Of a stretch of 64,000 bases of DNA, positions 8,464-59,286 are shown one piece after another (the stretch's first letter is position 1; each line of letters opens with the position of its first letter). This stretch comes from Alphaproteobacteria bacterium (GTDB lineage: Bacteria; Pseudomonadota; Alphaproteobacteria; CADEGL01): positions 14,604-78,603 of the forward strand of contig JBJXGH010000180.1 in the NCBI GenBank assembly GCA_046153685.1, written 5' to 3'. A model generated the notes under the pieces. It saw only the letters and a program-made list of their open reading frames with translations, ran no database searches and was not told the DNA's origin. The translations under genes and the position numbers were made by a program.

Positions 8464-8466
8464 GGC

Positions 8467-9243
8467 TCAATCGCCGCGCGCGAGTTCGCGGTCGATCAGA
8501 TAGAGCTTCAAGATGAACTCCGCCGCCGTGCGCTGGAAGCAATAGTGCAGGCCCGCGCGACCATCGAGGATGAGGCCGCGCACGAGCAACGCGTAGAAAA
8601 ACGTCACGAACGGCATGACATAGGTGCAGCGGCGCAGCCGGTCGGCCAGGCCCAATTCGCCGAACGCGGCATCGGCGAGCTTCGCCGCTTCGAGGCCCAT
8701 ATAGCGGTTTTGCGAGGCGACCCAATGGGCCAGCGGCTTGCGGTCGTCGTGCAGGATGGGATGGCGCAAATCGGCGACGGCGCCGTCGATTGCGACCTCG
8801 TCGGTATGGCCGTCCTGATGGAAGCGGCCGCGCGCGCGGCGAAAGAGTCGCGGGCGCGGCGGGTACAGCGTCGCGCGCAGCCGGCGGCCATGGACGCAAT
8901 ACACAAAGCGCGTGCGGTATGCGGCGATGTCGGGCCTAGGCGCCAACGCGCCGATTTCCGCCACCAGGCCCTCGGTCAGCACGTAATCGGCATCGAGCCG
9001 CATCATCCACTCGGTGCGGATGCCGGTTTCGGCCTGCCCGAAGGTCCATTGATTGGCGTGGTTGTCGAAAGGCCGGACAAAGACGCGCACATTGGAATAG
9101 CGCCGGGCGATGGCGAGCGTGTCGTCGGTGCTCGCGCTATCGACTACGACGATGTCGGGCGCCCAGGTCAGGCGATCGAGCGTGCGGCCGATATTCGGCG
9201 CCTCGTTATAGGTCAGAATGACCGGGGTGATCTGATCGTGCAC
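8467..9243 (-). CDS. Glycosyltransferase family 2
   Basis: ITPVILTYNEAPNIGRTLDRL...VVVDSASTDDT...RLDADY (GT2 DXD region). The listed ORF extends upstream through Arg-rich junk; start set at GTG 9243 (VHDQITPV) and remains uncertain. Confidence 0.65.
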   Translation of the reverse strand: MHDQITPVILTYNEAPNIGRTLDRLTWAPDIVVVDSASTDDTLAIARRYSNVRVFVRPFDNHANQWTFGQAETGIRTEWMMRLDADYVLTEGLVAEIGALAPRPDIAAYRTRFVYCVHGRRLRATLYPPRPRLFRRARGRFHQDGHTDEVAIDGAVADLRHPILHDDRKPLAHWVASQNRYMGLEAAKLADAAFGELGLADRLRRCTYVMPFVTFFYALLVRGLILDGRAGLHYCFQRTAAEFILKLYLIDRELARGD

Positions 9244-9434
9244 CGCGCAACTCCCGCGCGGGCCCTGATCGTGCCGCGCGCCCCAAGAGTAGGTGCGCGC
9301 CGCCTGTTCCCGCAAGCGCACTCGCGCGCCTCGCCGCCGACCGCCCCGCCGCCGACCATTTGGCCATCGATCATCGCGCCATAGCCGCCGCCGTGCCGCG
9401 CGGCTAAGGTGGCGCGGCTTCAAGGATAGCGACG

Positions 9435-10622: not shown

Positions 10623-10720
10623 GCGTCGCGCCGGGGACTTTGGCCGGGCGGGCGAATCCGATATACCAAAGACATGAACGACGAACGCATACCCCACGCG
10701 GACAAGACAGGAGACGGGCG

Positions 10721-36170: not shown

Positions 36171-37424
36171 TCAGCGCAGTGGCGGATCGGGGTTCCAGCC
36201 CAGGACCGCCAACATGACCAAAAAGCCGGAGATATAGGCGAGCGGCACATGCCAGCCCGCGCGCAGCCAGCGCACGACCGAGCGCGCCTCGATGAATTGA
36301 CTGGCAAGGGCAATGCCGGCGGAAGAGCCGAACCAGATCATCGAGCCGCCATAACCCACGGCATAGGCGAGGAAGCCCCAATCATAGCCGCCCTGTTCGA
36401 GCGCGAGTTTGGTGAGGGGAATGTTGTCGAACACCGACGACACGAAACCCAAGCCGAGCGCGGTTTGCCACGAGGCGTCGGGCAGGTGTTGGACCGGCAT
36501 CATCGAGGCAATGGTCACGAGCGATAGCAGGAAGACCGCGCCCTTGAAGGTCTCGGGCAATGCCTGCCAATCGGGCCGGCGCAAGGGGGCGGTGACGAGG
36601 ATCGCAGCCCAGACGGCAAGGCCGATCACGGGCAGGGCATCCAACATCGCGGGCGCGCGAAGATTTGCCGCGACATTGGCGCCGACGGCGCAGACGAGGA
36701 TGAGCGCCACGATGGCGAGGCGCACCCAATCGATGCGCGCGCCGGGAATCGCGTCTTTCACGATCGGCGCGTGGGCGTGCTGCTGGCGCGCGGCGAAATA
36801 CCCGGAGACGGCGAGGGCGACCGTCGCGGCGACAAAGGCCTCGATCACCGAGAGCGGACTTACCCCGGAAATCCACATCATGGTGGTGGTCGTGTCGCCG
36901 ACCACGCTGCCCGCGCCGCCGGCGTTCGCCGCGGCGACGATGGCGGCGAGGTAGCCGATGTGCACGCGATCACGGAACACGGTCTTGGCGATCATCCCGC
37001 CGATCAGCGCGCTGGCGATATTGTCGAGCAAGGCCGAAAGCACGAACACGATGGCGAGTAGGGCAAATCCGCCCGTCCAGTCATCGGGAAGCACGGCGGG
37101 CATGGCCTCCGGCACGCCGCTTTTCTCGAAATGGCGCGACAGCAGCGCAAAGCCCATGAGCAGGCAGAACAGATTCGCCAAAATGACCCATTCGTGGATC
37201 ATGTGATCGAGTAGCCCGCCAAATCCGGGGCCGCCGGAAAATCCGGTGAAGACGAGTTTGTAGGCCACGACCGCGCCGAGCCCCGACAGCGCCAACGCCA
37301 GGGTATGGCGGTGGAAGAACGCGATGCCGGCGAGCGTCGCCGCGAACAGGATGAAGTCGACCGGGACGGGGCCGATCATCACGGGTTGAATGTCGGGAAG
37401 TTCCATCGTGGCTGCCGACGTCAT
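36171..37424 (-). CDS. Ion-transporter superfamily permease (ArsB/NhaD/citrate-transporter-like)
   Basis: 417-aa polytopic membrane protein with an internal two-fold repeat, Gly-rich helices and ...DNIASALIGGMIAK... Confidence 0.6.
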   Translation of the reverse strand: MTSAATMELPDIQPVMIGPVPVDFILFAATLAGIAFFHRHTLALALSGLGAVVAYKLVFTGFSGGPGFGGLLDHMIHEWVILANLFCLLMGFALLSRHFEKSGVPEAMPAVLPDDWTGGFALLAIVFVLSALLDNIASALIGGMIAKTVFRDRVHIGYLAAIVAAANAGGAGSVVGDTTTTMMWISGVSPLSVIEAFVAATVALAVSGYFAARQQHAHAPIVKDAIPGARIDWVRLAIVALILVCAVGANVAANLRAPAMLDALPVIGLAVWAAILVTAPLRRPDWQALPETFKGAVFLLSLVTIASMMPVQHLPDASWQTALGLGFVSSVFDNIPLTKLALEQGGYDWGFLAYAVGYGGSMIWFGSSAGIALASQFIEARSVVRWLRAGWHVPLAYISGFLVMLAVLGWNPDPPLR

Positions 37425-37543
37425 GGGCCCTCTAAGCGGCGGGTGAGGCCGACGCGCGCGCTGTCCTTGCCTGCGTGCCCGCGATTTGCATCGCGAACCG
37501 GCCGGGTGGAATCAGCAAGGCCGGATGCGGAAAATTGCGCACT

Positions 37544-38392
37544 CTAGGCGCGCCAGACCACGGGGAACAATTCGCTGTCGAGCGCGTCGCCGGGTTTCAG
37601 CGCATGGCCGGTGAAGCTGGGCGAGGTGCCCTCGGGCCGTTCGATATAGCGGACATCCTCGCCCGCGAATCGAAAGGTGGTGGCGCGCAAAGCCCTGCCC
37701 GTGGATTTGTTGCCGGGCGCGCCGTGCAGGGCGTAGCCGTGAAAGACGATGCAATCGCCCGGCTCCATCGCCCAGCGCAGAACATTCTCCGCCTCGGGCC
37801 CGGTTTCGAGATCGGGAATGTCCTTGGCGTCGGGTCGGTCGGGGGCCGCGAAATGCGCCGATTTGCCGCCGTCGCGGAAGCTCAGGCGCTTGAAGCGGCC
37901 CATGCGGTGCGAACCGCGATAGAAGGACAGCACGCTATCGAGCGGTGCCTCGTCGAGCGGCAGCCACACGCTTGCCACGGTGTCGCCCTCGACCGGCCAA
38001 TAGGGCATGTCCTGGTGCCAGGGCGTCGGTTGATCGAGGCCGGGTGTGCGATAGAACACGCCGTCCCAGAGAAGATTTATCTTGCGCGACCGCGTAAAGC
38101 GCGCCGCCATTTCCGCGGCGCCCGATTCCCAGATGAAACGCCGGAACGCCGCGATGCGCGGCCAGCTGTACGAGACATTGAAGAACACGTTCGCCTGACC
38201 CGGACCGCCCGCATACCAATGGGTGTCGGCGGCGGGATCGCTGCGCGATTGCTCCGCTCCCTCGCGCAATTCCGCGATCCAATCGGCGTCGAACGCGCCG
38301 CGCAAGCATACCGCGCCGTCGCGCCAGTACGCGGCGATGTCTTCATCCGTCGCCAGCCGCGCGGGCGAAAGCGGTCGCGCCGCCATGTTCAT
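37544..38392 (-). CDS. Phytanoyl-CoA dioxygenase (PhyH) family Fe(II)/2-oxoglutarate oxygenase
   Basis: ...TPWHQDMPYWP... (HxD) ... IVFHGYALHGAPGN (distal His) is the PhyH fold; ectoine-hydroxylase-type enzymes belong here. Confidence 0.75.
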   Translation of the reverse strand: MNMAARPLSPARLATDEDIAAYWRDGAVCLRGAFDADWIAELREGAEQSRSDPAADTHWYAGGPGQANVFFNVSYSWPRIAAFRRFIWESGAAEMAARFTRSRKINLLWDGVFYRTPGLDQPTPWHQDMPYWPVEGDTVASVWLPLDEAPLDSVLSFYRGSHRMGRFKRLSFRDGGKSAHFAAPDRPDAKDIPDLETGPEAENVLRWAMEPGDCIVFHGYALHGAPGNKSTGRALRATTFRFAGEDVRYIERPEGTSPSFTGHALKPGDALDSELFPVVWRA

Positions 38393-38520
38393 GCCGCTTC
38401 TCCCCGAAGGCCTGTCGATCAGGCGACCGAATTATAGGGCCGAAACCGGACCGCCGCGAGAGCGCGCGTCGCGCCGCCTTGCCGGGGCGAGAGGGCGGAT
38501 CGTTATCGTGCGGTTCCCGC

Positions 38521-38571
38521 GTCGCGTCACCCCCAGTCGCGTCACCCCCAGTCGCGTCACCCCGAGTCGCG
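38521..38571. repeat. Tandem repeat, 3 copies of a 15-bp unit (GTCGCGTCACCCCCA)
   Basis: gtcgcgtcaccccca gtcgcgtcaccccca gtcgcgtcaccccga read directly, in the divergent promoter region between the PhyH gene and the double-EctC gene. Confidence 0.6.
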
Positions 38572-38629
38572 CGGGATCGCACGGTGCGTCATAATCCCTG
38601 TCTTGGCGCAGGGGATGGGGGGAAACGAT

Positions 38630-39457
38630 ATGTTCATTCGCACGCTCGACGGGCTTCGGGCCGAGGGCCGGATCAAATCCCTGGTTGGCGACACCACGCG
38701 CTCGGCGCGCTTTCTGGTGGCCGCGGACGGCTTGGGCTTTTCCTACAACGACAACCGGGTTGCCAAGGGTTCGGACACGAATCTTTGGTACAAGAATCAC
38801 TGGGAAGCCAATTACATCGTCGCGGGCGGCGCCGAGGTCACGGACTATGCCACCGGCCAGGTTCATGCGCTGGGGCCCGGCGATCTTTACACCGTCGGTC
38901 CGAACGACCGGCACCGCTTCCGCGTGACCGAGGATGAACACCATGTGAGCGTGTTCTGCCCGCCCTTGCGCGGCGACGAACGCCATGACGCAGATGGCGG
39001 GTACGAGGGCCACGCGCCCGGACCCAAGACCGCGCGGCGCATGTTCGTCAAACGCGGCGCGGAGATGCGTGCCGCCGGCCAGGAACTGATCTTCGCGGAC
39101 GGCAAGGACCGGACGCTGCGGATGTTGACCCAGGCGGACGATCTCGGCTTCGGCTTCTCCGACGTGCACTTCACCGCCGGCGCCGATACCGTGATCTGGT
39201 TCAAGCACCATTGGGAGGCGAACCACATCCTCTCCGGCACGCTCGAGGTCACCGAATTGACCACGGGCAAGGTGCACCGGGTGGAGCCGGGCATGGCTTA
39301 TAATGTCGGGCCCAAGGACCGCCACCGCCTGCACGCGCTTAGCGACGTGCACCTCATCAGCATTTTCTGCCCGGCCTTGCGCGGCGACGAAACCCATGAC
39401 GCGGACGGCTCGCTCTCGCCGAGCGGCCCCGTGCCGCCCGGCCCGAAGGGTGGCTGA
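38630..39457 (+). CDS. Tandem double EctC-like (ectoine-synthase-fold) cupin protein
   Basis: Two consecutive about 130-aa modules. Each matches EctC: MFIRTLDGL...WYKNHWEANYIVAGGAEV...VFCPPLRGDERHDADG and MFVKRGAEM...WFKHHWEANHILSGTLEV...IFCPALRGDETHDADG, against EctC's HYKHHFEAVYCIEGEGEV...VFTPGLTGNEVHREDG. Confidence 0.7.
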   Translation: MFIRTLDGLRAEGRIKSLVGDTTRSARFLVAADGLGFSYNDNRVAKGSDTNLWYKNHWEANYIVAGGAEVTDYATGQVHALGPGDLYTVGPNDRHRFRVTEDEHHVSVFCPPLRGDERHDADGGYEGHAPGPKTARRMFVKRGAEMRAAGQELIFADGKDRTLRMLTQADDLGFGFSDVHFTAGADTVIWFKHHWEANHILSGTLEVTELTTGKVHRVEPGMAYNVGPKDRHRLHALSDVHLISIFCPALRGDETHDADGSLSPSGPVPPGPKGG

Positions 39458-39610
39458 AGAACCGGCCTCGCGGGGATTTGCGCTGGGTTACGGGTCGGGC
39501 GTGATCGAGGATCGGGCGCGGGTGCGCATCATTGGCCAGCGGCGCGCAAGCCGCGATTGGAATTTCGCAATCATCGAGAAATAAGGAAAAGAGAAAAGAA
39601 AGGAACTCCC

Positions 39611-39913
39611 ATGTTCGCACGCATCAATCGCTTCGAGGTCGCCGACAACAAGGAGGCCGAACTGACCGCTGCGTACCGCAAGACCATCGAGGTGGTGAAA
39701 GCCGAGCCCGGCTTTCTTGAAGCCGTACTGATGATCGAGCCAGGGACCCAACAGGCCGTGTCGGTCACGTTCTGGGACACGAAGGAAAACATGGAACGCA
39801 CGGGCAAGGCGGGCCAGGGCTCCATGCTCGAAAAAATCCTGCCCATCGTGCGGCCATTCCAAAAGGCCCCGCCTGTGCACAAGCACTACGAGGTCAAGTT
39901 GCGGATGAAGTAG
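39611..39913 (+). CDS. Antibiotic-biosynthesis-monooxygenase (ABM/Dabb) domain protein
   Basis: MFARINRFEVADNKEAELTAAYRKTIEVVKAEPGFLEAVLMIEP...SVTFWDTKENMERT is a ferredoxin-like ABM fold. Purine-rich SD (AAGGAAAAGAGAAAAGAAAGGAA) upstream of ATG 39611. Confidence 0.6.
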   Translation: MFARINRFEVADNKEAELTAAYRKTIEVVKAEPGFLEAVLMIEPGTQQAVSVTFWDTKENMERTGKAGQGSMLEKILPIVRPFQKAPPVHKHYEVKLRMK

Positions 39914-40265
39914 GGCTAGGGCGCGGGGTCGGGGCGGCGGAACCGGCCAGGCGTGTCCCCGACCGCCGCCGCTTGCAGCCAGGCGGGGCGATTGCGACGC
40001 CGTCCGGTCACGCAGCGCGATCGGTAATCTGCCACCGGTTCGCGCCAAGCACGACATTCCGGCGATGCAAAGGGATGCCACGCCCGGTCGGGGGATCCGG
40101 TCGCGCGCTTTGCGCGCCGATCATCCCATTGCGCCGCCGTCCGGACAGGCGCGAACGCGGAACGGATTGTGCCGATCATTGGATGAAAGTTGGCGATCGG
40201 ATTGGCGTTCGGGCGCTGGTCACGGCCGTTGTTCTTCCATTGCTTGAGGGTATATTGCCGCGGCC

Positions 40266-40886
40266 ATGTTCAAGCGGTCAATCTGGCAGAGGCGCGGCAG
40301 GTGTTGCTTCGCACTCTTCGGCCTCCTGCCGTTCATCCTCTGGAGCGCTCCCGCTTCCGCCCATCCCCATATCTGGATTGATGCTTCGGCGACCTTCATC
40401 TTTGCCCAGGGCAGACTCACCGCGCTGCGCATGGAATGGGCCTTCGATCCCTTGTTCAGCGATTTCTTGCGCCAGAAATTCGATCCCAAGCGCACAGGGA
40501 AATTCGACGAGGCGACGCTGAACCAGATGAAGGTCGATCTCAACGGCGCGCGGGAGGACGGCTATTTCATCCATCTGCGCCTTGGCGATGCGCCCCAGAA
40601 GATCGATCGGCTCGCCGATTTCGCGGCGTCCTACCGCGACAAGCAGATAGTCTATCGTTTCGTCGTGCCGCTGGCCGCGCCGGCCGATCCCGTCGCCACG
40701 CCGGTGACGCTCAAGCTCTACGATTCGTCGTTCTATGTGGACGTTGGGCTGGACAAGTCCGACCCCGTTCGCTTCGAAGGCGAACGGCCGGGGTGCGTGT
40801 TCGATATCCGCGAGGACAAGGCGAATCCGATCTATTTCGGCCTCGTCTTTCCTCAGCGCATCGAGCTCAAGTGCAAGAAGACATGA
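40266..40886 (+). CDS. DUF1007 family periplasmic protein (COG3683-like; partner of RcnA/NicO-type metal transporters)
   Basis: Signal peptide then HPHIWIDASATFIF...LKLYDSSFYVD, characteristic of DUF1007. Translationally coupled (ATGA) to the downstream permease. Confidence 0.65.
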   Translation: MFKRSIWQRRGRCCFALFGLLPFILWSAPASAHPHIWIDASATFIFAQGRLTALRMEWAFDPLFSDFLRQKFDPKRTGKFDEATLNQMKVDLNGAREDGYFIHLRLGDAPQKIDRLADFAASYRDKQIVYRFVVPLAAPADPVATPVTLKLYDSSFYVDVGLDKSDPVRFEGERPGCVFDIREDKANPIYFGLVFPQRIELKCKKT

Positions 40887-41683
40887 GCCTGCCCCTTCTA
40901 TCTGTCGCGGACGGAGGGCTATTGTCCTGGCTCGTCCGTTCCGCCATCGCCTTCCAGCGCGTCGCCAATGAGGAGATCGCGGCGCGCATGGGCGCCGTCG
41001 CCGATGGCGGGTCGGCCTCGGCCCTGCTCACGGCAATAGGTCTCGGATTGCTCTACGGCGCGATCCACGCCGCCGGGCCTGGGCACGGCAAGCTGGTGGT
41101 CGTCAGCTATTTTCTTGCCGAGCGGGCGGCCATCTGGCGCGGACTCCTCATGGGCGCGCAGATCGCATTTTTCCATGTCGTCTCCGCGGTCATCGTGGTC
41201 GGGCTCGCCGACGTCCTCATGCGCCAAAGCTTCGGTCGTCCGCCGGAGGAGATCGCGGGCGTCCGCATCGCCAGCTACGTCGCCATCATCTCCATAGGCC
41301 TCGCCCTTCTCGTTCGCGCGACCCTGCGCCTGCGTCACCGCCATGATCATGGCTGCCATCACGGCCATTCCCATGGCGGTCAAGGGCTGCTGGCGCTGGC
41401 CGTGGGCATGGTGCCCTGCACCGGCGCGGTGCTGGTGATGCTTTACGCCTTGGCGAACGGGATCGTCCTGGCGGGCATGCTAGTGACCATCGCCATCGGC
41501 ATTGGCATGGCGGTGAGCATGGGCCTCATGGGGATCGCCGCCGTGGTGGCGCGCGCGGCCGCAAGCCGTTGGATCGAGCGCGGGGGCCGGCCCGTCTGGG
41601 GGAGCGTCATCGAGATCGCCGGCGCCCTGGCCGTCACGGCTCTGGGCGCTTTTTTGCTCGCAGGGACGATTCTTTCTCGGTAG
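40884..41683 (+). CDS. Nickel/cobalt transporter-like permease (RcnA/NicO, COG2215) with His-rich loop
   Basis: ...AIHAAGPGHGKLVVVSYF... (NicO signature) and a His-rich loop RLRHRHDHGCHHGHSHGG. Start at ATG about 40884 inside the listed out-of-frame ORF. Confidence 0.7.
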
Positions 41684-43360: not shown

Positions 43361-44191
43361 ATGCTCGCGTGGTCGATCTTTCCGTCGCTCGATGCGATCT
43401 CAAAGTTCCTTGCCGACGGCTATAATGTTTACTTCGTGCTGTGGGCCCGGTTCGCCGCCCAGCTCCTGGTCGGCGTGTTGATCGTGCTGCCGCGCGGCTT
43501 GATCGGCACGGCCCGAACGCCCTTTCTGAGCCAGCAGCTGCTTCGCTCCGGCGGCTTCACCGCCCACACCGTCATATTCATCCTGGGCATCCTCACTTTG
43601 CCGCTGGCCGAGGGCAGCGCCCTGCTTTTCACGGGGCCAATCATGCTGGCCGCGCTTTCGGTGCCTCTCCTGAACGAGCGGGTGGACCGCGCCACCTGGA
43701 TCGCCGTGCTGGCCGGCTTCGCCGGTGCCATGGTCGTGATTCGCCCCGGCCTCGACTTCGCCAATTGGGGCGCCCTGCTGGTGCTGCTATCGACGCTCTG
43801 CTTCGTGCTTTACCAGATCGCCACGCGCTCGCTGGCGCAGCGCGAGAATCCCTACACGACTCTTCTTTACACGCCGGCGGTCGGCGCGGTCGCCCTGGGC
43901 CTGTGCTTGCCCTGGACCTGGTCGGCGCCCAGCATGCATGACGCCGCGTTGATGGGGCTGATGGGCCTGGTTGGCGCGGTGGGCCATTTGATGCTGATCA
44001 AGGCTTATGAAAACGCAGGCGCTGCCCAGCTCGCGCCCTACAGCTACGTGCATATCCTTTCGGCGGCTCTGCTGGGATATGCCGTCTTCGGCGACGTGCC
44101 AGATCTGTGGGCCGCGGCCGGTGCCGCGATCATCGCAGTTAGCGGGCTGTGGCTGGCCTGGCGCAAGGGCGTCACGGGCCGAGTCGCCTAG
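43361..44191 (+). CDS. DMT-superfamily (EamA-like) transporter
   Basis: 10-TM EamA-type architecture with two repeats (...LFTGPIMLAALSVPLLNERV..., ...GLMGLVGAVGHLMLIKAYE...). No in-frame start exists upstream before a stop, so the N-terminus may be slightly truncated by the adjacent IS remnant. Confidence 0.65.
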   Translation: MLAWSIFPSLDAISKFLADGYNVYFVLWARFAAQLLVGVLIVLPRGLIGTARTPFLSQQLLRSGGFTAHTVIFILGILTLPLAEGSALLFTGPIMLAALSVPLLNERVDRATWIAVLAGFAGAMVVIRPGLDFANWGALLVLLSTLCFVLYQIATRSLAQRENPYTTLLYTPAVGAVALGLCLPWTWSAPSMHDAALMGLMGLVGAVGHLMLIKAYENAGAAQLAPYSYVHILSAALLGYAVFGDVPDLWAAAGAAIIAVSGLWLAWRKGVTGRVA

Positions 44192-44580
44192 CTGATCCGG
44201 CGCCCGAATCGACGTGACCGAAGCGGCGTATTGTCGCCGGCGCCGGGAGTATGGCGCGCTAAAGGTTGCGCGGGCGTCGCGGATGAAGGTGCTGGCGGAA
44301 AAAACTCGCGGCTTCACAAGTCGGTATCGAACTTGACGCTGGGCGCACCAATCCTGAAATGAAGTGATTGACGAAAAGTTCAAAACTCCTCGCGGCGCCG
44401 TGCGTGGCGTATGATCGGCAGGCACCGTTCGACCCAGCGCAATCCCGCCCGGCCACGATTCGGCTAGCAACGCTTGTACGAGGTATTGAAGAAGCTCTTC
44501 GTCGTTCTCCAAGTATTGGTCACGGATTGCTCGCCGAAATACGGTGCCGCTGCTTGCGTTCTCGGAACATAAAACCACCA

Positions 44581-44680
44581 TGCGCTGTCGATGGCGCAAC
44601 AACCAAGTCGAGAATTCGCATCAGTTGACCCGGCGAAGAGAACGCAAGATGCAAGAATTCAAGAGCCCGGGCTCTGACCG
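44581..44680 (+). mobile_element. Possible IS6-family transposase C-terminal fragment
   Basis: Translation RCRWRNNQVENSHQLTRRRERKMQEFKSPGS resembles the conserved IS6-family transposase C-terminal motif (LNNRAENSHQPTRRRE..M..FKS). Low-GC surroundings; no intact transposase present. Confidence 0.35.
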
Positions 44681-44766
44681 ACCCCCACCGAGTGTAAAAT
44701 CGCCACTCAGGGAGTCATTATTGAAAGTGATTTTACAAGGGGGCGTTCCAACGGTAATTTTTCCGC

Positions 44767-45666
44767 ATGAGTTATTGCGTCTTCATGCATCGGGCGGACT
44801 CGATTTACGACGACAGCCCCGCCGAGCGATACCAGTTCCCTAAGCAGTATCTGAGCCGGGCAAACGGCAGCATTGGAGATTGGGTCGTATATCTTGAGCC
44901 TTCACGAATACCTGGCACGCGCGGTTATTTTGCGATCGCGCGGGTGCAGCAGATCATTCCCGATCCCAAAGCTCCCAGCATGTATCTGGCGCTCATTGAG
45001 CCTGGTTCCTATCTCGATTTCGCGCGCCCCGTGCCATTCAATGAAAGGGATGGTCCGATTGAGCGAGGGTTGCTGAACACGCACGGCAATCTTTCGGGGC
45101 GCGTACAAGCAGCAGTGCGCCCAATCTCTCCGCAAGACTTCAACCGGATCATTGAACGCGGAATCGATGATCAGGAACCATTGCTCCCGCGCGTCGCAGA
45201 TTCGGAATCAGTTACGGGCTTCGAAGACGGTCAAACGCCGTATATCCTCGAACAACCCAGAGACAGGGTTCGGTTCCTGACATCGCGCGTTGTGCGCGAT
45301 CGTGTTTTTCGCAAGATTGTCCTTCGCGCCTATGACGAGCGTTGCGCGATTAGTGGCCTGAAGATCGTTAATGGTGGCGGTAGAGCGGAGGTCGATGCCG
45401 CACATATCCAACCAGTGCAGCACAAAGGCCCTGACATCCTCCATAACGGCATCGCCTTGTCGGGTACAGCGCATTGGATGTTTGATCGTGGCCTCATAAG
45501 CCTTTCGGACGATCTTGAGATTCTCATTTCCCGTCAGACCAACGATGTCGCCAGCGTGCAATCTTTCATCAACAAGGGTGGCCGCGCCACGCCGCCGCTA
45601 CGTGTCGCGGATCGGCCGCATCCGCACTTTCTAAAGTGGCACCGCGACAACTGTTTCAAAAGTTGA
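44767..45666 (+). CDS. HNH_2 (COG3440-type) endonuclease with about 190-aa N-terminal domain; candidate modification-dependent (type IV) restriction enzyme
   Basis: C-terminal CAISGLKIVNGGGRAEVDAAHIQPVQHKGPDILHNGIALSGTAHWMFDRGLISL matches the HNH_2 pattern C.I.G...L.AAHI.P....D...NG..L....H..FD.GLI. N-terminal domain of unassigned family. Lies in the lower-GC island. Confidence 0.7.
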   Translation: MSYCVFMHRADSIYDDSPAERYQFPKQYLSRANGSIGDWVVYLEPSRIPGTRGYFAIARVQQIIPDPKAPSMYLALIEPGSYLDFARPVPFNERDGPIERGLLNTHGNLSGRVQAAVRPISPQDFNRIIERGIDDQEPLLPRVADSESVTGFEDGQTPYILEQPRDRVRFLTSRVVRDRVFRKIVLRAYDERCAISGLKIVNGGGRAEVDAAHIQPVQHKGPDILHNGIALSGTAHWMFDRGLISLSDDLEILISRQTNDVASVQSFINKGGRATPPLRVADRPHPHFLKWHRDNCFKS

Positions 45667-45857
45667 GTCTTCGGGAGAACGCCCGGCTCAAACGGCTGGA
45701 GGCAGATCTCTCGCTCGAGAAGCAGGCGCTCAAGGATATTGCCTCGGGAAGCTTGAAAGGCCCGAACGGCGTTGGCGGGCGGCGGATGAATTCGGCCTTG
45801 TAGATGCCGCCGATCATTCATGGGCGCGCCGCCGCTCTTCGTCTGACTAATTGGCAT

Positions 45858-46424
45858 TCAGATGTTGCGGCTATCGTAGGCCCAGTGCAGCAAGGCCTGT
45901 CGCTGGCGCGGTCTGCAAAAGGGATCGCCTGGTTCGCAGTTCTGTTTGATCTGCGCGATGTGTCGCCGGAACGCCTTCCAGCGCTTGATCTGGCGCTTGT
46001 CTTCCTGGGGCAGCCGCCGCCCCATGAAATAACGGCAGTACCACTGGAACCAGCCGCGCGGATCGTCGTCGTGAAGCCAACCGTTCCGACGCCACACCGA
46101 GAGAGGCTGGCTCGCATCGACACCGAAATAGTTGAGGGCGTCATTCCTGCCGGACAGCGACAGCTTGGCGTGCGTGAACCAGCTCGGGGGAAATTCCCTT
46201 CGGCAGTCAGTCAGGTACTTGCCGCCGAAAACACCGAGCGTCAGCATGTCCTTGGGTGTGAGTTCAGGGCGGAATTCCGGGTCGAAATTGCGCCCGAGCG
46301 GTTCCGTCAGGATGTAACGGTATCCCCGCTGCATCGTGTCGTTGACGATCACGCGCCTGACTCGATATCGCTTGGAGCTTTCCGCTCGATCCTGCGAATT
46401 CGATCTATCCATGACCGCGAACAC
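45858..46424 (-). CDS. Hypothetical protein (188 aa, basic, Trp/Arg-rich)
   Basis: Complete ORF convergent with the HNH gene; ...TLGVFGGKYLTD...WFQWYCRYFMGRRLPQEDKRQIKRWKAFRRHI. No family recognised by eye. Confidence 0.4.
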   Translation of the reverse strand: MFAVMDRSNSQDRAESSKRYRVRRVIVNDTMQRGYRYILTEPLGRNFDPEFRPELTPKDMLTLGVFGGKYLTDCRREFPPSWFTHAKLSLSGRNDALNYFGVDASQPLSVWRRNGWLHDDDPRGWFQWYCRYFMGRRLPQEDKRQIKRWKAFRRHIAQIKQNCEPGDPFCRPRQRQALLHWAYDSRNI

Positions 46425-48482: not shown

Positions 48483-48774
48483 CTGCCGATCCGGCTTGGC
48501 GGCCTCGTCCGCATCGCGCATCGGACTTGGCCCCACCCGATTTATCGATTCATGATTCGAACCTCGACCTTTCGCGCGGCGGGGTCAAGCGCGGCGAAAC
48601 CGGTGCGGCGCCTCCCGCCGTCCATAACGGTTCATTTTCTCGACGCAAGCGACGAAGCTCGACCGCGTAACCATGTCGGCGCCGCGCGCGCCGCAACACG
48701 GAAGGCCAGATCCGAATTGCGCGCCAAGCGCTCCAATCCCCCGGCCTGTGCGATGGCTCTTCAAGCCTTCCGCC

Positions 48775-49872
48775 ATGCTTCGAATGTTTCCGTGCGCGCC
48801 ACCCTTGCGGACTTATCCGAAGGAGCGCACAATTTTCGGGCTCTGGAACGGCGATCGAGTGGTAACGCAGGTGACGGATTCGGTTCTTGCCGGTAAAGTG
48901 AACACCGGCGGGTGGGCTCCTCCGGAAGGAGTCGTCTCGCCGCCGCTGTTCGTATGGCCGCCCAGGCCGGTGGCCCTTCTGCGATGGCTGTTCAGCGTGC
49001 CGGGCTATCTGTTCCCGTGGAACGTGTTCTACATCGGCACCGCGCTTCTCGTGTGGATGTTCCTTATCCCCGAGATGGCGGCGATGAAGACTTTAGAATT
49101 CGGCTGGATCGCGCGTCTTTTCGCCATCAACGCGGCCTTGGTCTTCGTCTTCACCAGCGCATGGCATGTGCGGCTTTACACCCAGCGCGCACAGGACGTC
49201 ACGTTCAAGTTCGACGAGCAGTGGCCCAAATCGAACTCGTCCTTTCTCTTCGGCAATCAGCACTTCGATAACATGATCTGGACGATGCTGAGCGCCGTTC
49301 CGGTGATGACGGCCTATCTGGCGGTCATTCTGTGGGCGATGGCGAACGGCTTTGTGCCTTATGTGGAATGGGCCGACCAGCCGATCTATCTCGGCCTCGT
49401 CATGCTGGCTACGCAAGTGTTCCGCGACGTGCATTTCTACTGCATTCACCGGCTGATCCACTGGCCGCCGCTCTATCGCTGGATACACAGCCTTCATCAT
49501 AAGAACTCGAACCCCGGTCCGTGGTCGGGGCTGGCGATGCACCCGGTCGAGCACGTCCTGTATTTTTCCAGCCTGCTGATCCACTGGGTGGTGCCGTCCC
49601 ATCCGCTGCTGGTCCTTTATCACATGGTGGCTTCCGCCTTTGGGCCGTCGCGGGACCATTGCGGCTTTTCCTCGGTGGTGATCGGCGGCAAGGCGCGAAT
49701 CCCCGCGGCCTCGTACATGCATTATCTGCATCACCGATATTTCGAGGTGAACTACGGCGACAGCATCACGCCGATCGATCGGTGGTTTGGTACGTGGCAC
49801 GATGGCTCGCGCGTCGCGCACGCGGCGATGAAGCGGCGCATGATCAGGAATAAAACGCGCGGTGCCGCCTGA
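48775..49872 (+). CDS. Fatty-acid-hydroxylase superfamily membrane protein (sterol-desaturase family; di-iron His-box enzyme)
   Basis: His boxes HRLIHW...HSLHHK...HYLHHRY in a multi-TM protein. Start uncertain (ATG 48775 chosen; the listed ORF begins at 48673). Confidence 0.65.
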   Translation: MLRMFPCAPPLRTYPKERTIFGLWNGDRVVTQVTDSVLAGKVNTGGWAPPEGVVSPPLFVWPPRPVALLRWLFSVPGYLFPWNVFYIGTALLVWMFLIPEMAAMKTLEFGWIARLFAINAALVFVFTSAWHVRLYTQRAQDVTFKFDEQWPKSNSSFLFGNQHFDNMIWTMLSAVPVMTAYLAVILWAMANGFVPYVEWADQPIYLGLVMLATQVFRDVHFYCIHRLIHWPPLYRWIHSLHHKNSNPGPWSGLAMHPVEHVLYFSSLLIHWVVPSHPLLVLYHMVASAFGPSRDHCGFSSVVIGGKARIPAASYMHYLHHRYFEVNYGDSITPIDRWFGTWHDGSRVAHAAMKRRMIRNKTRGAA

Positions 49873-50144
49873 CGCGCCGCATGACTCTTGATGCCGATAT
49901 CCCAGATCATGCGCGCCCGCCCAAGCGATGCCCAAGAGCCGATCCCAACGGAGGGCGCTGTCTTGGATGCGGCGATGGAGCGCGGCGACGACGAGACGCG
50001 GAGGGCCGGGGAAGATTTTCATCGGCTTCGGCCCTGATGGTTTGGAAGCTGGTCTTTCCATGATTTGGCCACGCCGGTGCGGCGGGGCACTCGCCCGGGC
50101 CTTGCGCTATGATATGTGCCGCGCGGAAAAGACGAGAGGTCAGA

Positions 50145-51080
50145 ATGCTCGACAATCCCATCCCCTGGCCGAACGGCGCGCGCTGCGCGGTCGCGATCAC
50201 GTGGGACGTCGATTGCGATAGTGGGCTCAACTATTACAATCCCGAACGCGCGGACAATCTTGTCGCGTCCCAATCCCAGGTCCGCTACGACGCGGCGGTC
50301 GCGGTGCCGAGGCTGGTGAAGTTGCTAAAGCGCCTCGAGATGCGCCAGACCTTCTTCGTGCCCGGCTGGTGCATCGAGAAATTCCCGGCCAGCATGGACT
50401 CGCTCATCGCGGGTGGCCACGAACTGGCGCTCCATGGCTATCTGCACGAACGGCCGAACGAATTGTCGCCGGAGGAAGAACTTCGCGTCCTGCGCTTCGG
50501 CGTCGAGGCGTTCCGGCGCCATACCGGCGCGCGGCCGCGCGGCTGGCGCGCGCCCAGTTTCGCGTTCTCGAAGCACTCGCTCGGCTATCTCATCGCCGAG
50601 GGCTTTACCTACGATTCCTCGCTGATGGGCGACGATGTGCCCTATGTGCTTCGGCACGAGACCGGCAGTTTGTTGGAGCTGCCGACCGAATGGTGCCTCG
50701 ACGACTGGCCGCATTACGTCCACAACCGAGATTTCCGCCACCAGATGCCGATTTCGCCGCCCAGCCGGGCCATCGAGGTGTTTCGGGCCGAGTTCGACGC
50801 GGCGTGGAAGCACGGCGCGCTTTGGGTCAGTGTCTGGCACCCCTTCGTCAGTGGGCGGCTGTCCCGGCTCGAGGCCGTCATCGGCCTCATCGAATACATG
50901 CAGTCCAAGGGGAATGTGTGGTTCGCAACCCTGGGCGAAATCGCCGACCACGTGAAAGCCCTCGCCGATGGCGGACGGTGGATGCCGCGCGTGGACAATC
51001 TGCCCTACTACACGAGCCCGATCCCGGAAATAGCCAAACCGGCGATCGTCGCGTCCGCGCCGCGCAAACGCGGCACTTAA
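50145..51080 (+). CDS. Polysaccharide deacetylase (NodB-homology, CE4) family protein
   Basis: ...CAVAITWDVDCDSG...TFFVPGW...HGYLHE... contains the NodB motifs (TxDxD, H-x-x-H). Start at ATG 50145 with a GAGAGG SD. Confidence 0.75.
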   Translation: MLDNPIPWPNGARCAVAITWDVDCDSGLNYYNPERADNLVASQSQVRYDAAVAVPRLVKLLKRLEMRQTFFVPGWCIEKFPASMDSLIAGGHELALHGYLHERPNELSPEEELRVLRFGVEAFRRHTGARPRGWRAPSFAFSKHSLGYLIAEGFTYDSSLMGDDVPYVLRHETGSLLELPTEWCLDDWPHYVHNRDFRHQMPISPPSRAIEVFRAEFDAAWKHGALWVSVWHPFVSGRLSRLEAVIGLIEYMQSKGNVWFATLGEIADHVKALADGGRWMPRVDNLPYYTSPIPEIAKPAIVASAPRKRGT

Positions 51081-51134
51081 GCCGCCACCGGCGGGGCGAT
51101 CGAGGGCCGCGATCGGCCATGGGGAGGGGAAGAC

Positions 51135-51962
51135 ATGCCGAAGATGTTGTCGCCGGCGGCCGTAAGCCAATTCCATGACCACGGCTATCTCTCGCCGGTG
51201 GCCGCATTGTCGCCCGACGAGGTCGCGCGCAACCGGCTTTCCCTCGCTTCGTTCGAAGCGCGCGAGGGCGGCAAGCTCGCGGGTGCCGCGCGAAACAAGT
51301 CGCACCTGTTCCTGCGCTGGCTCTACGACCTTGCCCGTCATCCCAAGATCCTCGACGCCGTCGAGGATCTGATCGGGCCGGACATCCTGCTGTATCACGC
51401 CCAATGGTTCATCAAGGAGCCGCACACCCCGCACTTCGTCTCGCTCCACCAGGATTCGGCCTATTGGTCCCTGGCCTCGCCGCAGGGCTTGTCGGCCTGG
51501 ATTGCTTTCGAGGATTGCGACGCCGAGAACGGCTGCATGCGCGTGATTCCGGATACCCATCGCGACGCCCTGGCGCACGTGGACAGGCAGGCGCCCGACA
51601 ATCTGTTGTGGCGTGGCCAGACGGTGGCAGCGGAGATCGACGAAGCGAGGGCGGTGGAGATGCCGCTTCGGGCCGGCGAAATGTCTCTGCACCATGCGCG
51701 CATCGTCCATGGCTCGGGGCCCAATCGCTCGCCGCGCCGGCGCATCGGCTATTCCCTGCGCTATATCCCGACCTCGATCGCGCGCAACGGGCCGCGCGAC
51801 AGCGCCATGCTCGTGCGCGGGGTCGATCGCTACCATCATTTCGACTTGGAACCCGCGCCCGGCGCTGATTACGAGCCGACGGCCGTGGCGCTTCATGCCG
51901 AGATCAACCGGCGCTTCATGGAGCACTACACCGCCGCCACGCCCGAGAGGGCGGCGCAATAG
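51135..51962 (+). CDS. Phytanoyl-CoA dioxygenase (PhyH) family Fe(II)/2OG oxygenase (second copy in window)
   Basis: ...FVSLHQDSAYW... (HxD) ... LHHARIVHGSGPN (distal His). Tight spacing to flanking genes suggests an operon. Confidence 0.75.
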   Translation: MPKMLSPAAVSQFHDHGYLSPVAALSPDEVARNRLSLASFEAREGGKLAGAARNKSHLFLRWLYDLARHPKILDAVEDLIGPDILLYHAQWFIKEPHTPHFVSLHQDSAYWSLASPQGLSAWIAFEDCDAENGCMRVIPDTHRDALAHVDRQAPDNLLWRGQTVAAEIDEARAVEMPLRAGEMSLHHARIVHGSGPNRSPRRRIGYSLRYIPTSIARNGPRDSAMLVRGVDRYHHFDLEPAPGADYEPTAVALHAEINRRFMEHYTAATPERAAQ

Positions 51963-51981
51963 GCAATTCAAGAGAACGGCG

Positions 51982-52788
51982 ATGATGCGCGCGTGGCAAT
52001 CGAAGGCAGAGGCGGAGCTCGGCGCCGCAACCCTGCAAGCGCTGTTCGACAACCGGATCCCGGCCATCCGGATCAAGGACTTTGCGACCGAGGAGGAGTG
52101 CCGGCGCTTTGCCGCCGCTGTCACGGAGGCCGAACAACATCCCATCGTCTTCGCCTCGAAGGACGGCGAGGCGCTGTCGAAACCTAAGATCGGTTATATC
52201 GGCATCTTCCAGCATTTTTACCGGCACAGGGACAAAAGCGCCTATTTCGCCGATGTGGCGGCGGCGCAAGCGCGGCTGCGCGAAATTTTCGCGCGCTCGT
52301 TCGACCCCATCGCGCGCATGCAAGACTTGTTGCGCGTATACGCCCAGGCTTCCGTCGCGATCGCGGACGAGGGCGAAGGCTACGGGTGCTATTATGCCGG
52401 CATCGTCCGCGCAATGACGGTTGGCGCCGATCTCCATTGCGACTACCACCCCTATTATGCGCGCCCCTACCGGATCGGCCGGATCGATGCCCAGATTGGC
52501 TGGAACATTTACGCTTCTGGCCGGGGGGGCGGGGGCGAGCTCGTGGTCTACAACAATCCCTGGACGCCCCAGGTTAGGGGCGATGAAATCCCCGAGAGCT
52601 TTCCCCTGCCGCGCAGCTCGACCGAGGGCGCGGAACGATTCGTGATCGAGATCAGGGCGGGCGATGTCGTCCTGTTCAACACCCGCAATCCGCACGAAAT
52701 CCTGCCCTCCAAGGGTGACGAGCCGCGCATCTCGCTCGGCACCTTTCTCGGCCGTTTGCCGGAAGGCAATCTGTTGATGTGGTCCTAG
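51982..52788 (+). CDS. Putative 2-His-1-carboxylate (2OG/Fe(II)-oxygenase-like) protein
   Basis: ...GADLHCDYHPYY... (HxD) ... VLFNTRNPHEILPS (distal His) ... RISLGTFLG. Start at ATG 51982 inside a longer listed ORF. Family assignment tentative. Confidence 0.45.
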   Translation: MMRAWQSKAEAELGAATLQALFDNRIPAIRIKDFATEEECRRFAAAVTEAEQHPIVFASKDGEALSKPKIGYIGIFQHFYRHRDKSAYFADVAAAQARLREIFARSFDPIARMQDLLRVYAQASVAIADEGEGYGCYYAGIVRAMTVGADLHCDYHPYYARPYRIGRIDAQIGWNIYASGRGGGGELVVYNNPWTPQVRGDEIPESFPLPRSSTEGAERFVIEIRAGDVVLFNTRNPHEILPSKGDEPRISLGTFLGRLPEGNLLMWS

Positions 52789-53547: not shown

Positions 53548-53856
53548 TCACATCTTGGGCGGACGGGTTTCGCGGGCCCGCATGACATAGCCAGTGAAGC
53601 TCGGGCGCTGCTTCTGATAGGGCGCCACCAGCGCGATCGCCGTTTCGATGAAATCGCCCTTGGCGGTTGCGTCCGCGTCTTCCTTGGTTTCCCACAGCGT
53701 GATCGACAGCGCCGAACCGGTGCCGGGCTCGATGTACAGCGTGCCCTCGCGGAAGCCCTTTTGCACCGTGAACGGGGCGAGGGCCTTCTTGTAGGCGGCG
53801 GTCAACTCGCTCTCCTTGCCTTCGACCACGTCGAAACGGCCGATGCGTGCGTACAT
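53548..53856 (-). CDS. ABM-domain monooxygenase-like protein (paralogue of 39611..39913)
   Basis: MYARIGRFDVVEGKESELTAAYKK...ALSITLWETKEDADAT parallels MFARINRFEVADNKEAELTAAYRK...AVSVTFWDTKENMERT. Confidence 0.6.
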   Translation of the reverse strand: MYARIGRFDVVEGKESELTAAYKKALAPFTVQKGFREGTLYIEPGTGSALSITLWETKEDADATAKGDFIETAIALVAPYQKQRPSFTGYVMRARETRPPKM

Positions 53857-55580: not shown

Positions 55581-55764
55581 TCACCCTTCCCGCCAGCCGA
55601 CGATGCACGGGACGGACAGCGTCGCACGATCGCGCGGTCATCCGCCACGCTTCCCTTCCCCTGAGACCGGGCCGAACGCCACGCCGCCCCGATGGCGATC
55701 GCGCGCTTCCCCTTAACGGGGCATTGCGCCATCCTGGTGCGGCAAGTGGAAAGTCGCGCGCCAT

Positions 55765-56827
55765 CATGAATCGAAGCGACGAGGATTTGGCCCAAACGCG
55801 GCGGCGCTGCGCGCTCGCGACGCGGCTCTGGGATCGCATGTTTTCCGCCCTGACCTGCATCGCCTATCGCGCGCACGGCGAGGAGGGCATGCGGTCTCTG
55901 TGGTTCGCGATGCTATCGAACCACCAGGGCGGGCATTATCGCGACGGCCTGAAGCTTCTTGGCATCGACAAGGATCCGCCCGCGATCGCCGCCGCGAAAT
56001 ACCACTATCTTTCGAATCAAATCGGCGAGCGCCGGATGGCCTATATCGAGGAATCGCCGAAGAAGGTGTGGATTCGGTACATGGCGCCCGTGTGGATGTA
56101 CGACGGCGTATCCCTTTTGGCCTTGCCTCGGAGTTCGCGCCGCATGGTGCTCACGGTATGGCACCCGCGGAACGGACCGATGATGGGCTGCGCGCGTCTA
56201 GGCTATGTCGCGACCAAGTTCATCACCGAAGGCGAGCCCTACGACGAAGGCTATTTCATCGAGCACGACCGCGATCTGGCTCCGGCGGAAACGCTGAAAT
56301 TCGAAACCGCGCGCCATACGCCCGAATTCGATCCCGCCAAGGCGCCGAAGCTTGATCCTGCGGCATGGCCCGAGGCGCGAGTCTTGAAGGCGCGGCGGAA
56401 TTTCGCCGGCGGATACGTGACGACGGCGATCGAGGTATTGACGTCCGCCTACGGCGAGGGCGCGACGGCCGCGCTGGTGGCGGAGGCCATGGACGGCCTT
56501 GCCGTGCAATACGTCCACGAATTGCGCGACATGGCCGGCATTGCGGGTACGGGGGCCGGGGCGATTGCCGCGCTGTTCGCGGCCTTGCTTGAAGCCTGTT
56601 ATCAGGAGTTTTCGGTGGAAAGCGCGAGCGCAGCCCATCATCGGATCGTCCTGAAAACCTTCCGCCCGTTTTCCGGCACGGTGTCCGAGGCCCTGCGGGC
56701 GGCATTCTTCCGCTTCCCGTTCATGGCCACGCGCGTGCTCGATGGCCGGATATCGGCATCCCGCCAAGCCGGGGCGGACGGCACGGAGATTTGGGATTTC
56801 AAGGACGCCGGGCGCTGGCTCTGGTAG
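55765..56827 (+). CDS. Hypothetical protein (about 354 aa)
   Basis: Complete ORF with genome-typical codon bias. No family recognised by eye. Start chosen at ATG 55765 (MNRSDEDL). Confidence 0.4.
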
Positions 56828-58464: not shown

Positions 58465-59286
58465 TCAGGCGGGACCCGGCGGCACGGGCCCGCTCGGCGG
58501 CAGCGAGCCGTCCGCGTCGTGCCGCTCATCGCCCCTCAAGGGCGGACAGAAGATGCTCAACAGGTGCACCGCGCTGCGCGCGCGAATCTTGTGCCGGTCT
58601 TTGGGTCCCACGCAGTAGATCATGTCCGGTTCGAGAGTCCAGATCTTGCCCGTGGCCAAATCCTCGACCTCGAGCGTGCCGGACAGAACGTGGTTCGCCT
58701 CCCAATGGTGCTTGTACCACAGCACGGATTCGGCCCCCGCCTTCACGCGCACGTCCGAGAGGGTAAAGCCCACGCCATCATCCTGGGTCAGCATGCGGAT
58801 TACCTTCGAATTGCCGGTAACGCTGGTTTTCTCGTAACCAGCCGCGCGCAATTCGTCGATCGTCTTCACGAACATGCGTCCATCGGTTCTTGCGATTGGC
58901 CCGCTCGGCTCGAAGGCGCCGTCGGCGTCGTGCCGTTCGTCGCCGCGAAGGGCGGGGTGGAAGACGCTGACGTGATGCTCGGCCCCGGGCGTGTGCAACA
59001 CATGGTGGTCATTGGGCCCCACGACATAGAGGGAGCCCGGCGCGAGCGTCCAGCTCCGACCGCCGGACAGCTCGGTCAATTCGGCCTTGCCCTCGACGAT
59101 GTAGTTCGCTTCCCAGTGGTTCTTGTACCAGATGGTCGCGGTCGAGCCGGCGTCGCAGCGTGCATCGCTGTAGGAGAATCCCACTCCGTCCGCGGCGACT
59201 AGAAACCGCGCGGCGTGCGTGGTGCCATTCACGAGGGACAGCGTGCGACAGAGGGCCGCGACGTCTGCGAGCGTGCGGACGAACAT
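58465..59286 (-). CDS. Tandem double EctC-like cupin protein, second paralogue
   Basis: MFVRTLADV...WYKNHWEANYIVEGKAEL...VFHPALRGDERHDADG then MFVKTIDEL...WYKHHWEANHVLSGTLEV...IFCPPLRGDERHDADG. About 60-65% identical to the 38630..39457 protein by eye. Confidence 0.7.
   Translation of the reverse strand: MFVRTLADVAALCRTLSLVNGTTHAARFLVAADGVGFSYSDARCDAGSTATIWYKNHWEANYIVEGKAELTELSGGRSWTLAPGSLYVVGPNDHHVLHTPGAEHHVSVFHPALRGDERHDADGAFEPSGPIARTDGRMFVKTIDELRAAGYEKTSVTGNSKVIRMLTQDDGVGFTLSDVRVKAGAESVLWYKHHWEANHVLSGTLEVEDLATGKIWTLEPDMIYCVGPKDRHKIRARSAVHLLSIFCPPLRGDERHDADGSLPPSGPVPPGPA

Follow-up and report, generated by a model that had tools for sequence, protein, structure and literature searches.

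The window analysed here, a 64,000-nucleotide stretch of an alphaproteobacterial contig (JBJXGH010000180.1, positions 14,604 to 78,603 of the forward strand), carries a gene for a protein of 275 amino acids (aa) built from two consecutive cupin modules of the ectoine synthase (EctC) type, which we refer to as the double EctC-like protein or bicupin (Table 1). A preliminary description of this DNA had read the protein as two complete EctC-like modules in tandem, each with its hallmark motifs, and both points held, far above the level of chance: in a Pfam scan the family PF06339 (Ectoine_synth) matched the protein in two separate stretches (E 1.5e-61), the NCBIfam model PRK13290 likewise matched in two stretches, and the motifs WYKNHWEA...VFCPPLRGDERHDADG and WFKHHWEA...IFCPALRGDETHDADG were present in the first and the second half, respectively. 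Aligned with each other, the two halves (residues 1-134 and 135-275) showed 48% identity over 123 residues without a gap (E 7e-44), and the second module ends in a conserved SGPVPPGP tail. The mechanical open reading frame (ORF) opens earlier, at TTG 38603, and we took ATG 38630 as the start codon because all homologues begin with MF(I/V)R; the stop codon is TGA 39457 on the same (+) strand. In a sequence search of solved structures, the only relatives were EctC enzymes, namely 5bxx from Sphingopyxis alaskensis and 5onm/n/o from Paenibacillus lautus (E ~1e-21), and no solved structure of a fused double EctC-like protein was found in this search.

To describe the active sites, residue conservation was counted over 31 family members and both of their halves (62 half-sequences) and mapped onto EctC numbering. 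The iron ligands of EctC (Glu57, Tyr85 and His93 in S. alaskensis numbering) correspond to E59/Y87/H95 in the first half and to E196/Y224/H232 in the second, and both Glu/Tyr/His triads were invariant (31/31), so that the metal site whose retention the preliminary description had singled out for checking is kept in both halves. The equivalents of Arg25 and Phe107 and the lid motif P-x-L-x-G-x-E were also invariant in both halves of this alignment (31/31), with each barrel keeping the C-terminal lid in the longer form F-x-P-x-L-x-G-x-E-x-H-D. Mean pairwise identity was 70% and 73% for the two halves, and this roughly equal conservation argues that both are functional and that neither is a decaying copy. 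Because the metal triad, the carboxylate-anchoring Arg and the lid motif are kept in each of them, both barrels are likely to be catalytic. Triad residues were lost in some divergent members, from the C-half in P0140, P0143 and P0157 and from the N-half in L062_9521.

The substrate pockets were remodelled. The position of Trp21 was occupied by Thr in 25 of 31 N-halves and by Ala in 23 of 31 C-halves, and by Trp in none of the 62 half-sequences; the window protein has no Trp at or near this position in either half (GDTTRSARF in the N-half, DGKDRTLRM in the C-half). Thr40 was replaced by Asn in the N-half (29/31) and by Val in the C-half (30/31), the Asn/His38 position held Asn (26/31) and Ser (30/31), respectively, and the Cys105 position was Ser in both halves of every member (31/31). 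The EctC contacts that were kept comprise Arg25, Tyr52 (mostly), Ser/Thr23 and Phe107. As judged from the alignment, the two pockets differ from EctC and from each other, and these differences are conserved. [quoted passage not shown] Since the pockets are remodelled, and differently in each half, it most likely does not serve as an ectoine synthase with N-gamma-acetyl-diaminobutyrate (N-gamma-ADABA) as substrate for this protein; a substrate differing from this compound, as had been suggested before, is probable from the pocket residues.

AlphaFold2, run with a 30-sequence alignment, predicted one compact and confident globule (mean predicted local distance difference test (pLDDT) 93.8, predicted template modelling score (pTM) 0.92), and Foldseek against the Protein Data Bank (PDB) returned whole-chain matches to solved bicupins (probability 1.00, template modelling (TM) score up to 0.72). 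The best fold matches were the YlbA-like proteins 1sef, 1rc6 and 1sfn (TM up to 0.72, root mean square deviation 3.7-4.3, with 3.7-3.8 for 1sef and 1rc6), and quercetin dioxygenases, oxalate decarboxylase and pirin were also matched over the whole chain. The confident model and these matches fit the earlier idea that the fusion forms a pseudo-dimer. The strands that build the head-to-tail dimer interface in EctC (PMC6344544) are retained in both modules, namely the N-terminal strand (MFIRT and MFVKR) and the PG-x-x-Y-x-V strand, and by this model the two barrels would pack together in the arrangement of the two EctC subunits.

The junction between the modules may also retain traces of how the fusion arose. 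In the family alignment T134, R137, M138 and F139 were invariant, the second module opening with an invariant Met-Phe-Val, and what was once the C-terminal tail of the first module appears to have become the linker. Because Met138 is invariant family-wide at the start of the second module, it is likely to be, in the simplest reading, the relic start codon of a tandem gene pair that was later fused. A neighbour-joining (NJ) tree was built over 137 columns from the separated halves, 30 single-domain representatives and two crystallised EctCs, with bootstraps from capped distances and with the most divergent sequences left out. All halves fell into one group apart from the single-domain proteins (58/100), and in the core family the N-halves (85/100) and the C-halves (~50/100) formed two sister groups, so the placement relative to EctC that had been proposed as a check put the halves outside the single-domain group, with moderate bootstraps. 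The pattern would fit one old duplication and fusion, followed by co-divergence. Three single-domain proteins (P0182, P0225 and P0237) share the S-x-V and H-x-EAN features with the halves and may resemble their ancestor.

The family proved to be large. In a protein database clustered at 90%, 589 relatives were found at E <= 1e-5, and the best 120 of these were nearly all 271-278 aa long, with the same two-domain layout and 63-96% identity; at 50% clustering, 513 clusters in 1.84 billion were related to the query, single-domain EctC being counted in. A signature scan with one genome per species yielded at least 172 loci, a number that is a lower bound. Most loci belong to alphaproteobacterial metagenome-assembled genomes (MAGs) from soil and from water or marine samples (Stellaceae, Dongiaceae, Hyphomicrobiales, Rhodospirillales and Parvibaculaceae), some lie in bins labelled Rokubacteria, Binatia, Acidobacteriota, Desulfobacterales and Gammaproteobacteria, and there are two cultured hosts, Dongia deserti and Taklimakanibacter lacteus, both of them desert isolates. 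The 81 sequences examined contained 102 ORFs with two EctC-type domains and just one genuine single-domain ORF. At one locus (L054, 10001-10780) a double EctC-like gene is broken into two single-domain ORFs, probably by a frameshift or an assembly error. In marine Rhodospirillaceae-type MAGs the gene occurs in tandem arrays of six (L062), four (L058) or three copies (L029 and L035). Within the arrays the copies share 33-61% identity, both triads persist in nearly all of them, and the pocket positions vary, a pattern that would fit a family diversified over related substrates and not a single biosynthetic step. The six-copy array adjoins two AstE/AspA-family genes, a small cupin gene and a GcvT-like gene. 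In full-text literature searches, neither a fused or bicupin EctC nor any characterised member of the family came up, in agreement with the earlier impression of an uncharacterised pathway.

An exact-sequence look-up identified the window protein as MFN0044587.1, publicly titled 'MAG: ectoine synthase [Alphaproteobacteria bacterium]' and placed on a contig of 99.5 kb, and the proteins of the isolates bear the same name (records include MFN0044605.1, WP_119304606.1 and WP_162913948.1). The curated PRK13290 cut-off is 128 bits for one domain (NCBIfam). Scanned singly, the N-half scored 117.8 bits and the C-half 100.4 bits, each below this cut-off, and the whole protein scored 213.7 bits, compared with 188.2 bits for S. 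alaskensis EctC. The name 'ectoine synthase' was thus assigned because two sub-threshold domains sum above 128 bits; it is a scoring artefact and not evidence of function. This is likely a systematic over-annotation that touches surveys of ectoine producers. EctC serves as the diagnostic marker for such producers in genome and metagenome surveys (PMC5924519), and with at least 172 loci of species-level genomes automatically named 'ectoine synthase', estimates of ectoine producers can be inflated, especially in soil data sets.

In the window, the Pfam scan confirmed the two flanking genes that the preliminary description had named, a divergent gene for a PhyH-family Fe/2-oxoglutarate dioxygenase and a downstream gene for a small ABM-fold protein, whereas the role of hydroxylation partners that it had suggested for them was not borne out (see below). 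The PhyH protein did not match the ectoine hydroxylase (EctD) model TIGR02408. Beyond it lie genes for an NhaD-like permease, a glycerol-3-phosphate-dehydrogenase-like flavoprotein and a 683-aa OYE/FadH-type flavoenzyme, and the ABM gene is followed by an unrelated DUF1007/NicO metal-transport pair, a redoxin and an EamA transporter. The DUF1007 gene and the NicO-like nickel/cobalt transporter gene (40266-41683) overlap by 4 bp and probably form a metal-uptake pair; to tie them to metal loading of the bicupin would be pure speculation. The earlier statement that ectA and ectB are missing stood, as no class-III aminotransferase or GNAT protein (EctB/EctA type) was found among the ~40 window ORFs scanned, a few others being left out of the scan.

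The nearest relative (L001) shares 96% protein identity with the window bicupin, and its DNA is 92% similar. This DNA similarity is confined to 38560-39458 and 39593-39916, i.e. to the bicupin and ABM genes, and the upstream gene in the relative is dimethylglycine-dehydrogenase-like, in place of PhyH. Because the similarity covers these two genes alone, the bicupin and ABM genes behave as a two-gene module in changing surroundings. A 15-bp tandem repeat in the PhyH/bicupin intergenic region sits 60-110 bp upstream of the bicupin start, and the similarity to the relative begins inside its last copy (38560); the repeat might serve as a binding site for a regulator or be a scar left by recombination. 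Elsewhere in the window its motif showed no enrichment, and a regulon could therefore not be derived from it. A scan of 37400-40400 returned no promoter-like site and one terminator-like match inside the ORF, which is probably due to chance.

Some 20 kb away from the first pair, the window holds a second bicupin gene, a second ABM gene and, at the same locus, an unannotated ORF of 367 aa (55724-56827). The second bicupin gene stands downstream of a Crp-family regulator gene and converges on an AMP-dependent ligase gene, an arrangement that recurs at four other loci (L009, L021, L026 and L048) and, with the ligase gene ~3 kb away, at L059. Neither of these second copies, nor the size of the family, nor its public naming as ectoine synthase, had appeared in the preliminary description. 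Between the two bicupin loci, at 48673-52788, we noted tailoring-type genes for a fatty-acid-hydroxylase family protein, a polysaccharide deacetylase and a WelO5-like Fe/2-oxoglutarate enzyme. The stretch 44001-46000 has a GC content of 0.58 against ~0.65 elsewhere, includes an ORF of 299 aa (44767-45666, +) with a sequence resembling an HNH-type nuclease motif, and may be a foreign insertion. A polysaccharide-type cluster at 5576-12184, with two GT4 glycosyltransferases, a carbamoyltransferase and a PfkB kinase/cytidylyltransferase fusion, is unrelated to the bicupin.

Table 1. Coordinates of the double EctC-like gene, its modules and associated features (window positions, except for the tandem arrays, which are given in the coordinates of their own loci)
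Feature	Position	Strand	Details
PhyH-family Fe/2-oxoglutarate dioxygenase gene, divergent	37544..38392	-	282 aa; Pfam PF05721, E 2.2e-23
15-bp tandem repeat GTCGCGTCACCCCCA	38521..38571	.	3.4 copies, 97% matches; PhyH/bicupin intergenic region
Double EctC-like protein gene	38630..39457	+	275 aa; ORF list; Pfam PF06339 twice, E 1.5e-61; NCBI MFN0044587.1
N-terminal EctC-like cupin module	38630..39031	+	residues 1-134
N-module metal triad codons	38804-38806, 38888-38890, 38912-38914	+	E59, Y87, H95
N-module pocket residues			T23, S25, R27, N40, N42, Y54
Linker end	39032..39040	+	A135-R137, directly before invariant Met138
C-terminal EctC-like cupin module	39041..39454	+	residues 138-275, opening at Met138 (ATG 39041-39043)
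C-module metal triad codons	39215-39217, 39299-39301, 39323-39325	+	E196, Y224, H232
C-module pocket residues			D160, T162, R164, S177, V179, F191
ABM-fold protein gene	39611..39913	+	100 aa; 153 bp downstream of bicupin; Pfam PF03992, E 7e-8
Second ABM-fold paralogue	53548..53856	-	102 aa, 44% identical to first; downstream of FAD_binding_2 oxidoreductase
Second double EctC-like paralogue	58465..59286	-	273 aa, 61% identical; NCBI MFN0044605.1
Tandem array, locus L062	7415-13656		six copies
Tandem array, locus L058	1187-5189		four copies
Tandem array, locus L029	35-3379		three copies
Tandem array, locus L035	9150-12506		three copies

The gene neighbourhood was surveyed at 69 loci, with 127 directly flanking genes at the 68 loci besides the window. 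These 127 genes were spread over 126 Pfam families, and a single conserved operon partner was thus rejected. An ABM gene lay within 5 kb at 7/69 loci, all of them close relatives, and a PhyH gene within 4-5 kb at 5/69. The survey that the preliminary description had called for therefore turned against the neighbours it had stressed: the two genes do not look like dedicated hydroxylation partners, and PhyH plus ABM as a conserved pathway was ruled out, given their rarity and the failure of the window PhyH to match the EctD model; the nearest relative, moreover, shares the ABM gene and not PhyH. No ect cluster stood beside any of the 69 loci, and class-III aminotransferases accounted for 2/127 flanking genes.

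Among the neighbours, genes of amine or osmolyte catabolism recurred. GbcA-like Rieske oxygenases were found at 10 loci, dimethylglycine-dehydrogenase-like or GcvT-like proteins, TauD dioxygenases and AMP-dependent ligases at 6 loci each, M24 hydrolases with their best score on models of the ectoine hydrolase DoeA (below cut-offs) at 5, AstE/AspA-family proteins weakly like the deacetylase DoeB at 5, and M20 deacylases at 3. By a raw count with no background control, 28/69 loci had a gene of amine- or osmolyte-catabolic type within 4 kb, and 11 of those 28 had DoeA-like M24, DoeB-like AstE or M20 deacylase genes. The most informative operon for guessing the substrate is that of L059 (6641-11858), a tight same-strand run of an EctD-like dioxygenase (TIGR02408 177 bits, below cut-off), a DoeA-like M24 protein, a DRL/SAF oxidoreductase, the bicupin and a GbcA-like Rieske oxygenase. 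In L018 (D. deserti, 205-6135) and L023 the bicupin gene stands between two dimethylglycine-dehydrogenase-like genes (~810 aa each), and the run continues with a dienelactone-hydrolase/SnoaL fusion and an HpcH-aldolase/SDR fusion. The order AstE-like, bicupin, M20, AstE-like was shared by L047 and L049, a Rieske oxygenase gene followed by the bicupin gene with divergent TauD genes was seen in L064-L076, and OYE flavoenzymes of trimethylamine-dehydrogenase type occurred in the window and in L039. The M24 and sarcosine-dehydrogenase-like neighbours had also prompted the idea of a creatinine/creatine-type ring chemistry, which remains speculation because the M24 proteins score best on ectoine hydrolase and not on creatinase.

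Taken together, we put at about even odds (a probability of roughly 0.5) the explanation that the double EctC-like protein is a metalloenzyme with two sites, derived from EctC, whose reaction is the opening or closing of a ring in an ectoine-related or N-acyl amino acid compound. An EctC-type cupin gene would have been duplicated in tandem and the copies fused in frame to give the single-chain bicupin, each barrel of which would hold, in its Glu/Tyr/His site, one metal ion, presumably Fe2+ by analogy with EctC. The reaction would be that of an EctC-type hydro-lyase, a reversible ring closing or opening by elimination or addition of water at the amide or amidine of a carboxylate-bearing nitrogen compound; EctC itself has been reported to hydrolyse ectoine analogues, i.e. 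to run backwards (PMC6344544). The setting would be the uptake and catabolism of osmolyte-like or N-acylated amino compounds and not de novo osmolyte synthesis, and in the window the bicupin would work as a two-gene unit with the small ABM-fold protein. Several observations weigh against this explanation. The genomic context is very heterogeneous, as the 126 Pfam families show, and the catabolic theme, counted without a background control, is a trend and not proof; the window copy itself has no adjacent Doe-like or demethylase genes, its neighbours being PhyH, ABM, a transporter and flavoenzymes. Most EctC ligand contacts besides Trp21 and Thr40 are kept (S23, R25, Y52, F107, E115 and H117), and a weak or real N-gamma-ADABA activity may therefore be present. 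The whole-chain fold matches were to other bicupins, the likeness to the EctC dimer being a prediction, and support in the NJ tree, on 137 columns only, is moderate.

These kept contacts, together with the retained triads, are also what speaks for a genuine fused ectoine synthase, in which the two barrels would replace the homodimer and cyclise N-gamma-ADABA that is either made by EctA/EctB from genes located elsewhere or imported from the environment, as has been suggested for the solitary EctC of Pseudomonas syringae. Such an enzyme would accord with the whole-protein score on PRK13290 (213.7 against 128 bits) and the NCBI name, with hosts that include desert and soil bacteria, where ectoine would be useful, and with the report that a solitary EctC made ectoine in a heterologous host (PMC5924519). 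Yet Trp21, reportedly conserved in the 437 EctC proteins and 145 orphans and needed for EctC activity, of which the W21A mutant keeps 9.7% (PMC6344544), is absent from 62/62 half-sequences, Thr40 is replaced in both halves, each half stays below the curated PRK13290 cut-off, none of the 69 loci has an ect cluster beside it, and up to six divergent copies in a row would be senseless for a single biosynthetic step; we regard a fused ectoine synthase as quite improbable. A cupin lyase or isomerase whose chemistry has nothing to do with closing an amidine ring, and whose products would feed the neighbouring N-demethylases, seems unlikely to us as well, albeit less so. Such an enzyme might act by C-N or C-S elimination, with a betaine-like zwitterion as its substrate, in the manner of the dimethylsulfoniopropionate (DMSP) lyase DddK, or open a ring in a non-nitrogen compound, in the manner of KdgF, and these two degradative cupins are structurally closest to EctC (PMC6344544). 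Neighbours of N-demethylation type are indeed frequent (GbcA-like Rieske oxygenases at 10 loci, dimethylglycine-dehydrogenase/GcvT-like proteins at 6, TauD at 6, and OYE in the window and L039), but they occur in a minority of loci, counted without a control, no member was linked to known DMSP or uronate genes, and the retained Tyr metal ligand, lid motif and Arg25 point to an EctC-like handling of the substrate.

Many bicupins use just one metal site, and the double EctC-like protein might accordingly be a non-catalytic ligand-binding or regulatory bicupin, or combine one catalytic barrel with a structural or regulatory pseudo-site. The systematic difference between the two pockets and the loss of triad residues in P0140, P0143 and P0157 (C-half) and L062_9521 (N-half) would agree with this, but the core family keeps both triads and both lids in equally conserved halves, which is hard to explain without selection on both sites, and we attach very little probability to it. 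With regard to the two-site metalloenzyme favoured here, a bolder version can be formulated, in which a new family with two different active sites per chain acts on one or more cyclic amidine or N-acyl amino compounds whose part as osmolytes or nutrients of bacteria has yet to be recognised, the tandem arrays covering a range of such compounds; this is tentative, and we consider it rather doubtful as a whole. If true, the substrates would reveal that Alphaproteobacteria of soil and marine habitats have a branch of small-molecule nitrogen metabolism not known before, and the role of 'orphan' EctC-type proteins would be explained. With its cultured hosts, its operons with Doe-like hydrolases and N-demethylases and its pocket differences, the family offers a practical route into the orphan-EctC problem, and as an evolutionary example it shows a homodimeric cupin turned into one chain with two barrels whose sites diverge. 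In fold and likely chemistry the fused family is close to a well-studied enzyme, and it is widespread.

Three known systems invite comparison. Generic bicupins (the YlbA/ureidoglycine aminohydrolase-like 1RC6, 1SEF and 1SFN, YxaG, OxdC and pirin) also have two barrels per chain with pseudo-two-fold symmetry, and Foldseek matched them to the whole chain of the fused protein (TM 0.55-0.72), but their identity is 11-18%, their metal motifs are His-rich and not Glu/Tyr/His, and they arose by independent duplication events. The orphan EctC-type proteins (e.g. of P. syringae B728a; Czech et al. 2018, groups 1-3), whose function as solitary proteins is an acknowledged open question (PMC5924519, PMC6344544), are likewise encoded outside ect clusters, commonly have Ser at position 104/105 and are frequent in Alphaproteobacteria, and the single-domain P0182, P0225 and P0237 share S-x-V and EAN features with the halves. 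The orphans described are single-domain and reportedly keep the Trp21 equivalent, whereas the fused family lacks this Trp and forms its own group in the tree; the literature found on orphan EctC-type proteins mentions no fusion; solitary EctC-type proteins are known, and no published description of the fused double form was found. The closest relative is EctC itself (EC 4.2.1.108; 5ONM/5ONN/5ONO from P. lautus, 5BXX/5BY5 from S. alaskensis), which shares PF06339 and is ~40% identical to each half across the cupin, with the same unusual Glu/Tyr/His triad, Arg25, Ser23, Tyr52, Phe107 and C-terminal lid motif. EctC forms a head-to-tail dimer of two chains of ~130 aa, and the fused protein is predicted to form an equivalent two-barrel unit from one chain of 275 aa. 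In contrast to EctC, the fused family lacks an ectA/ectB neighbourhood, each half stays under the NCBIfam threshold, other residues stand in place of Trp21 and Thr40, Ser invariably takes the place of Cys105, the motifs read HHWEAN and VGPxDRH instead of NH(L/V)EAV and ALDxHD(R/K)H, and a conserved SGPxP tail follows each module.

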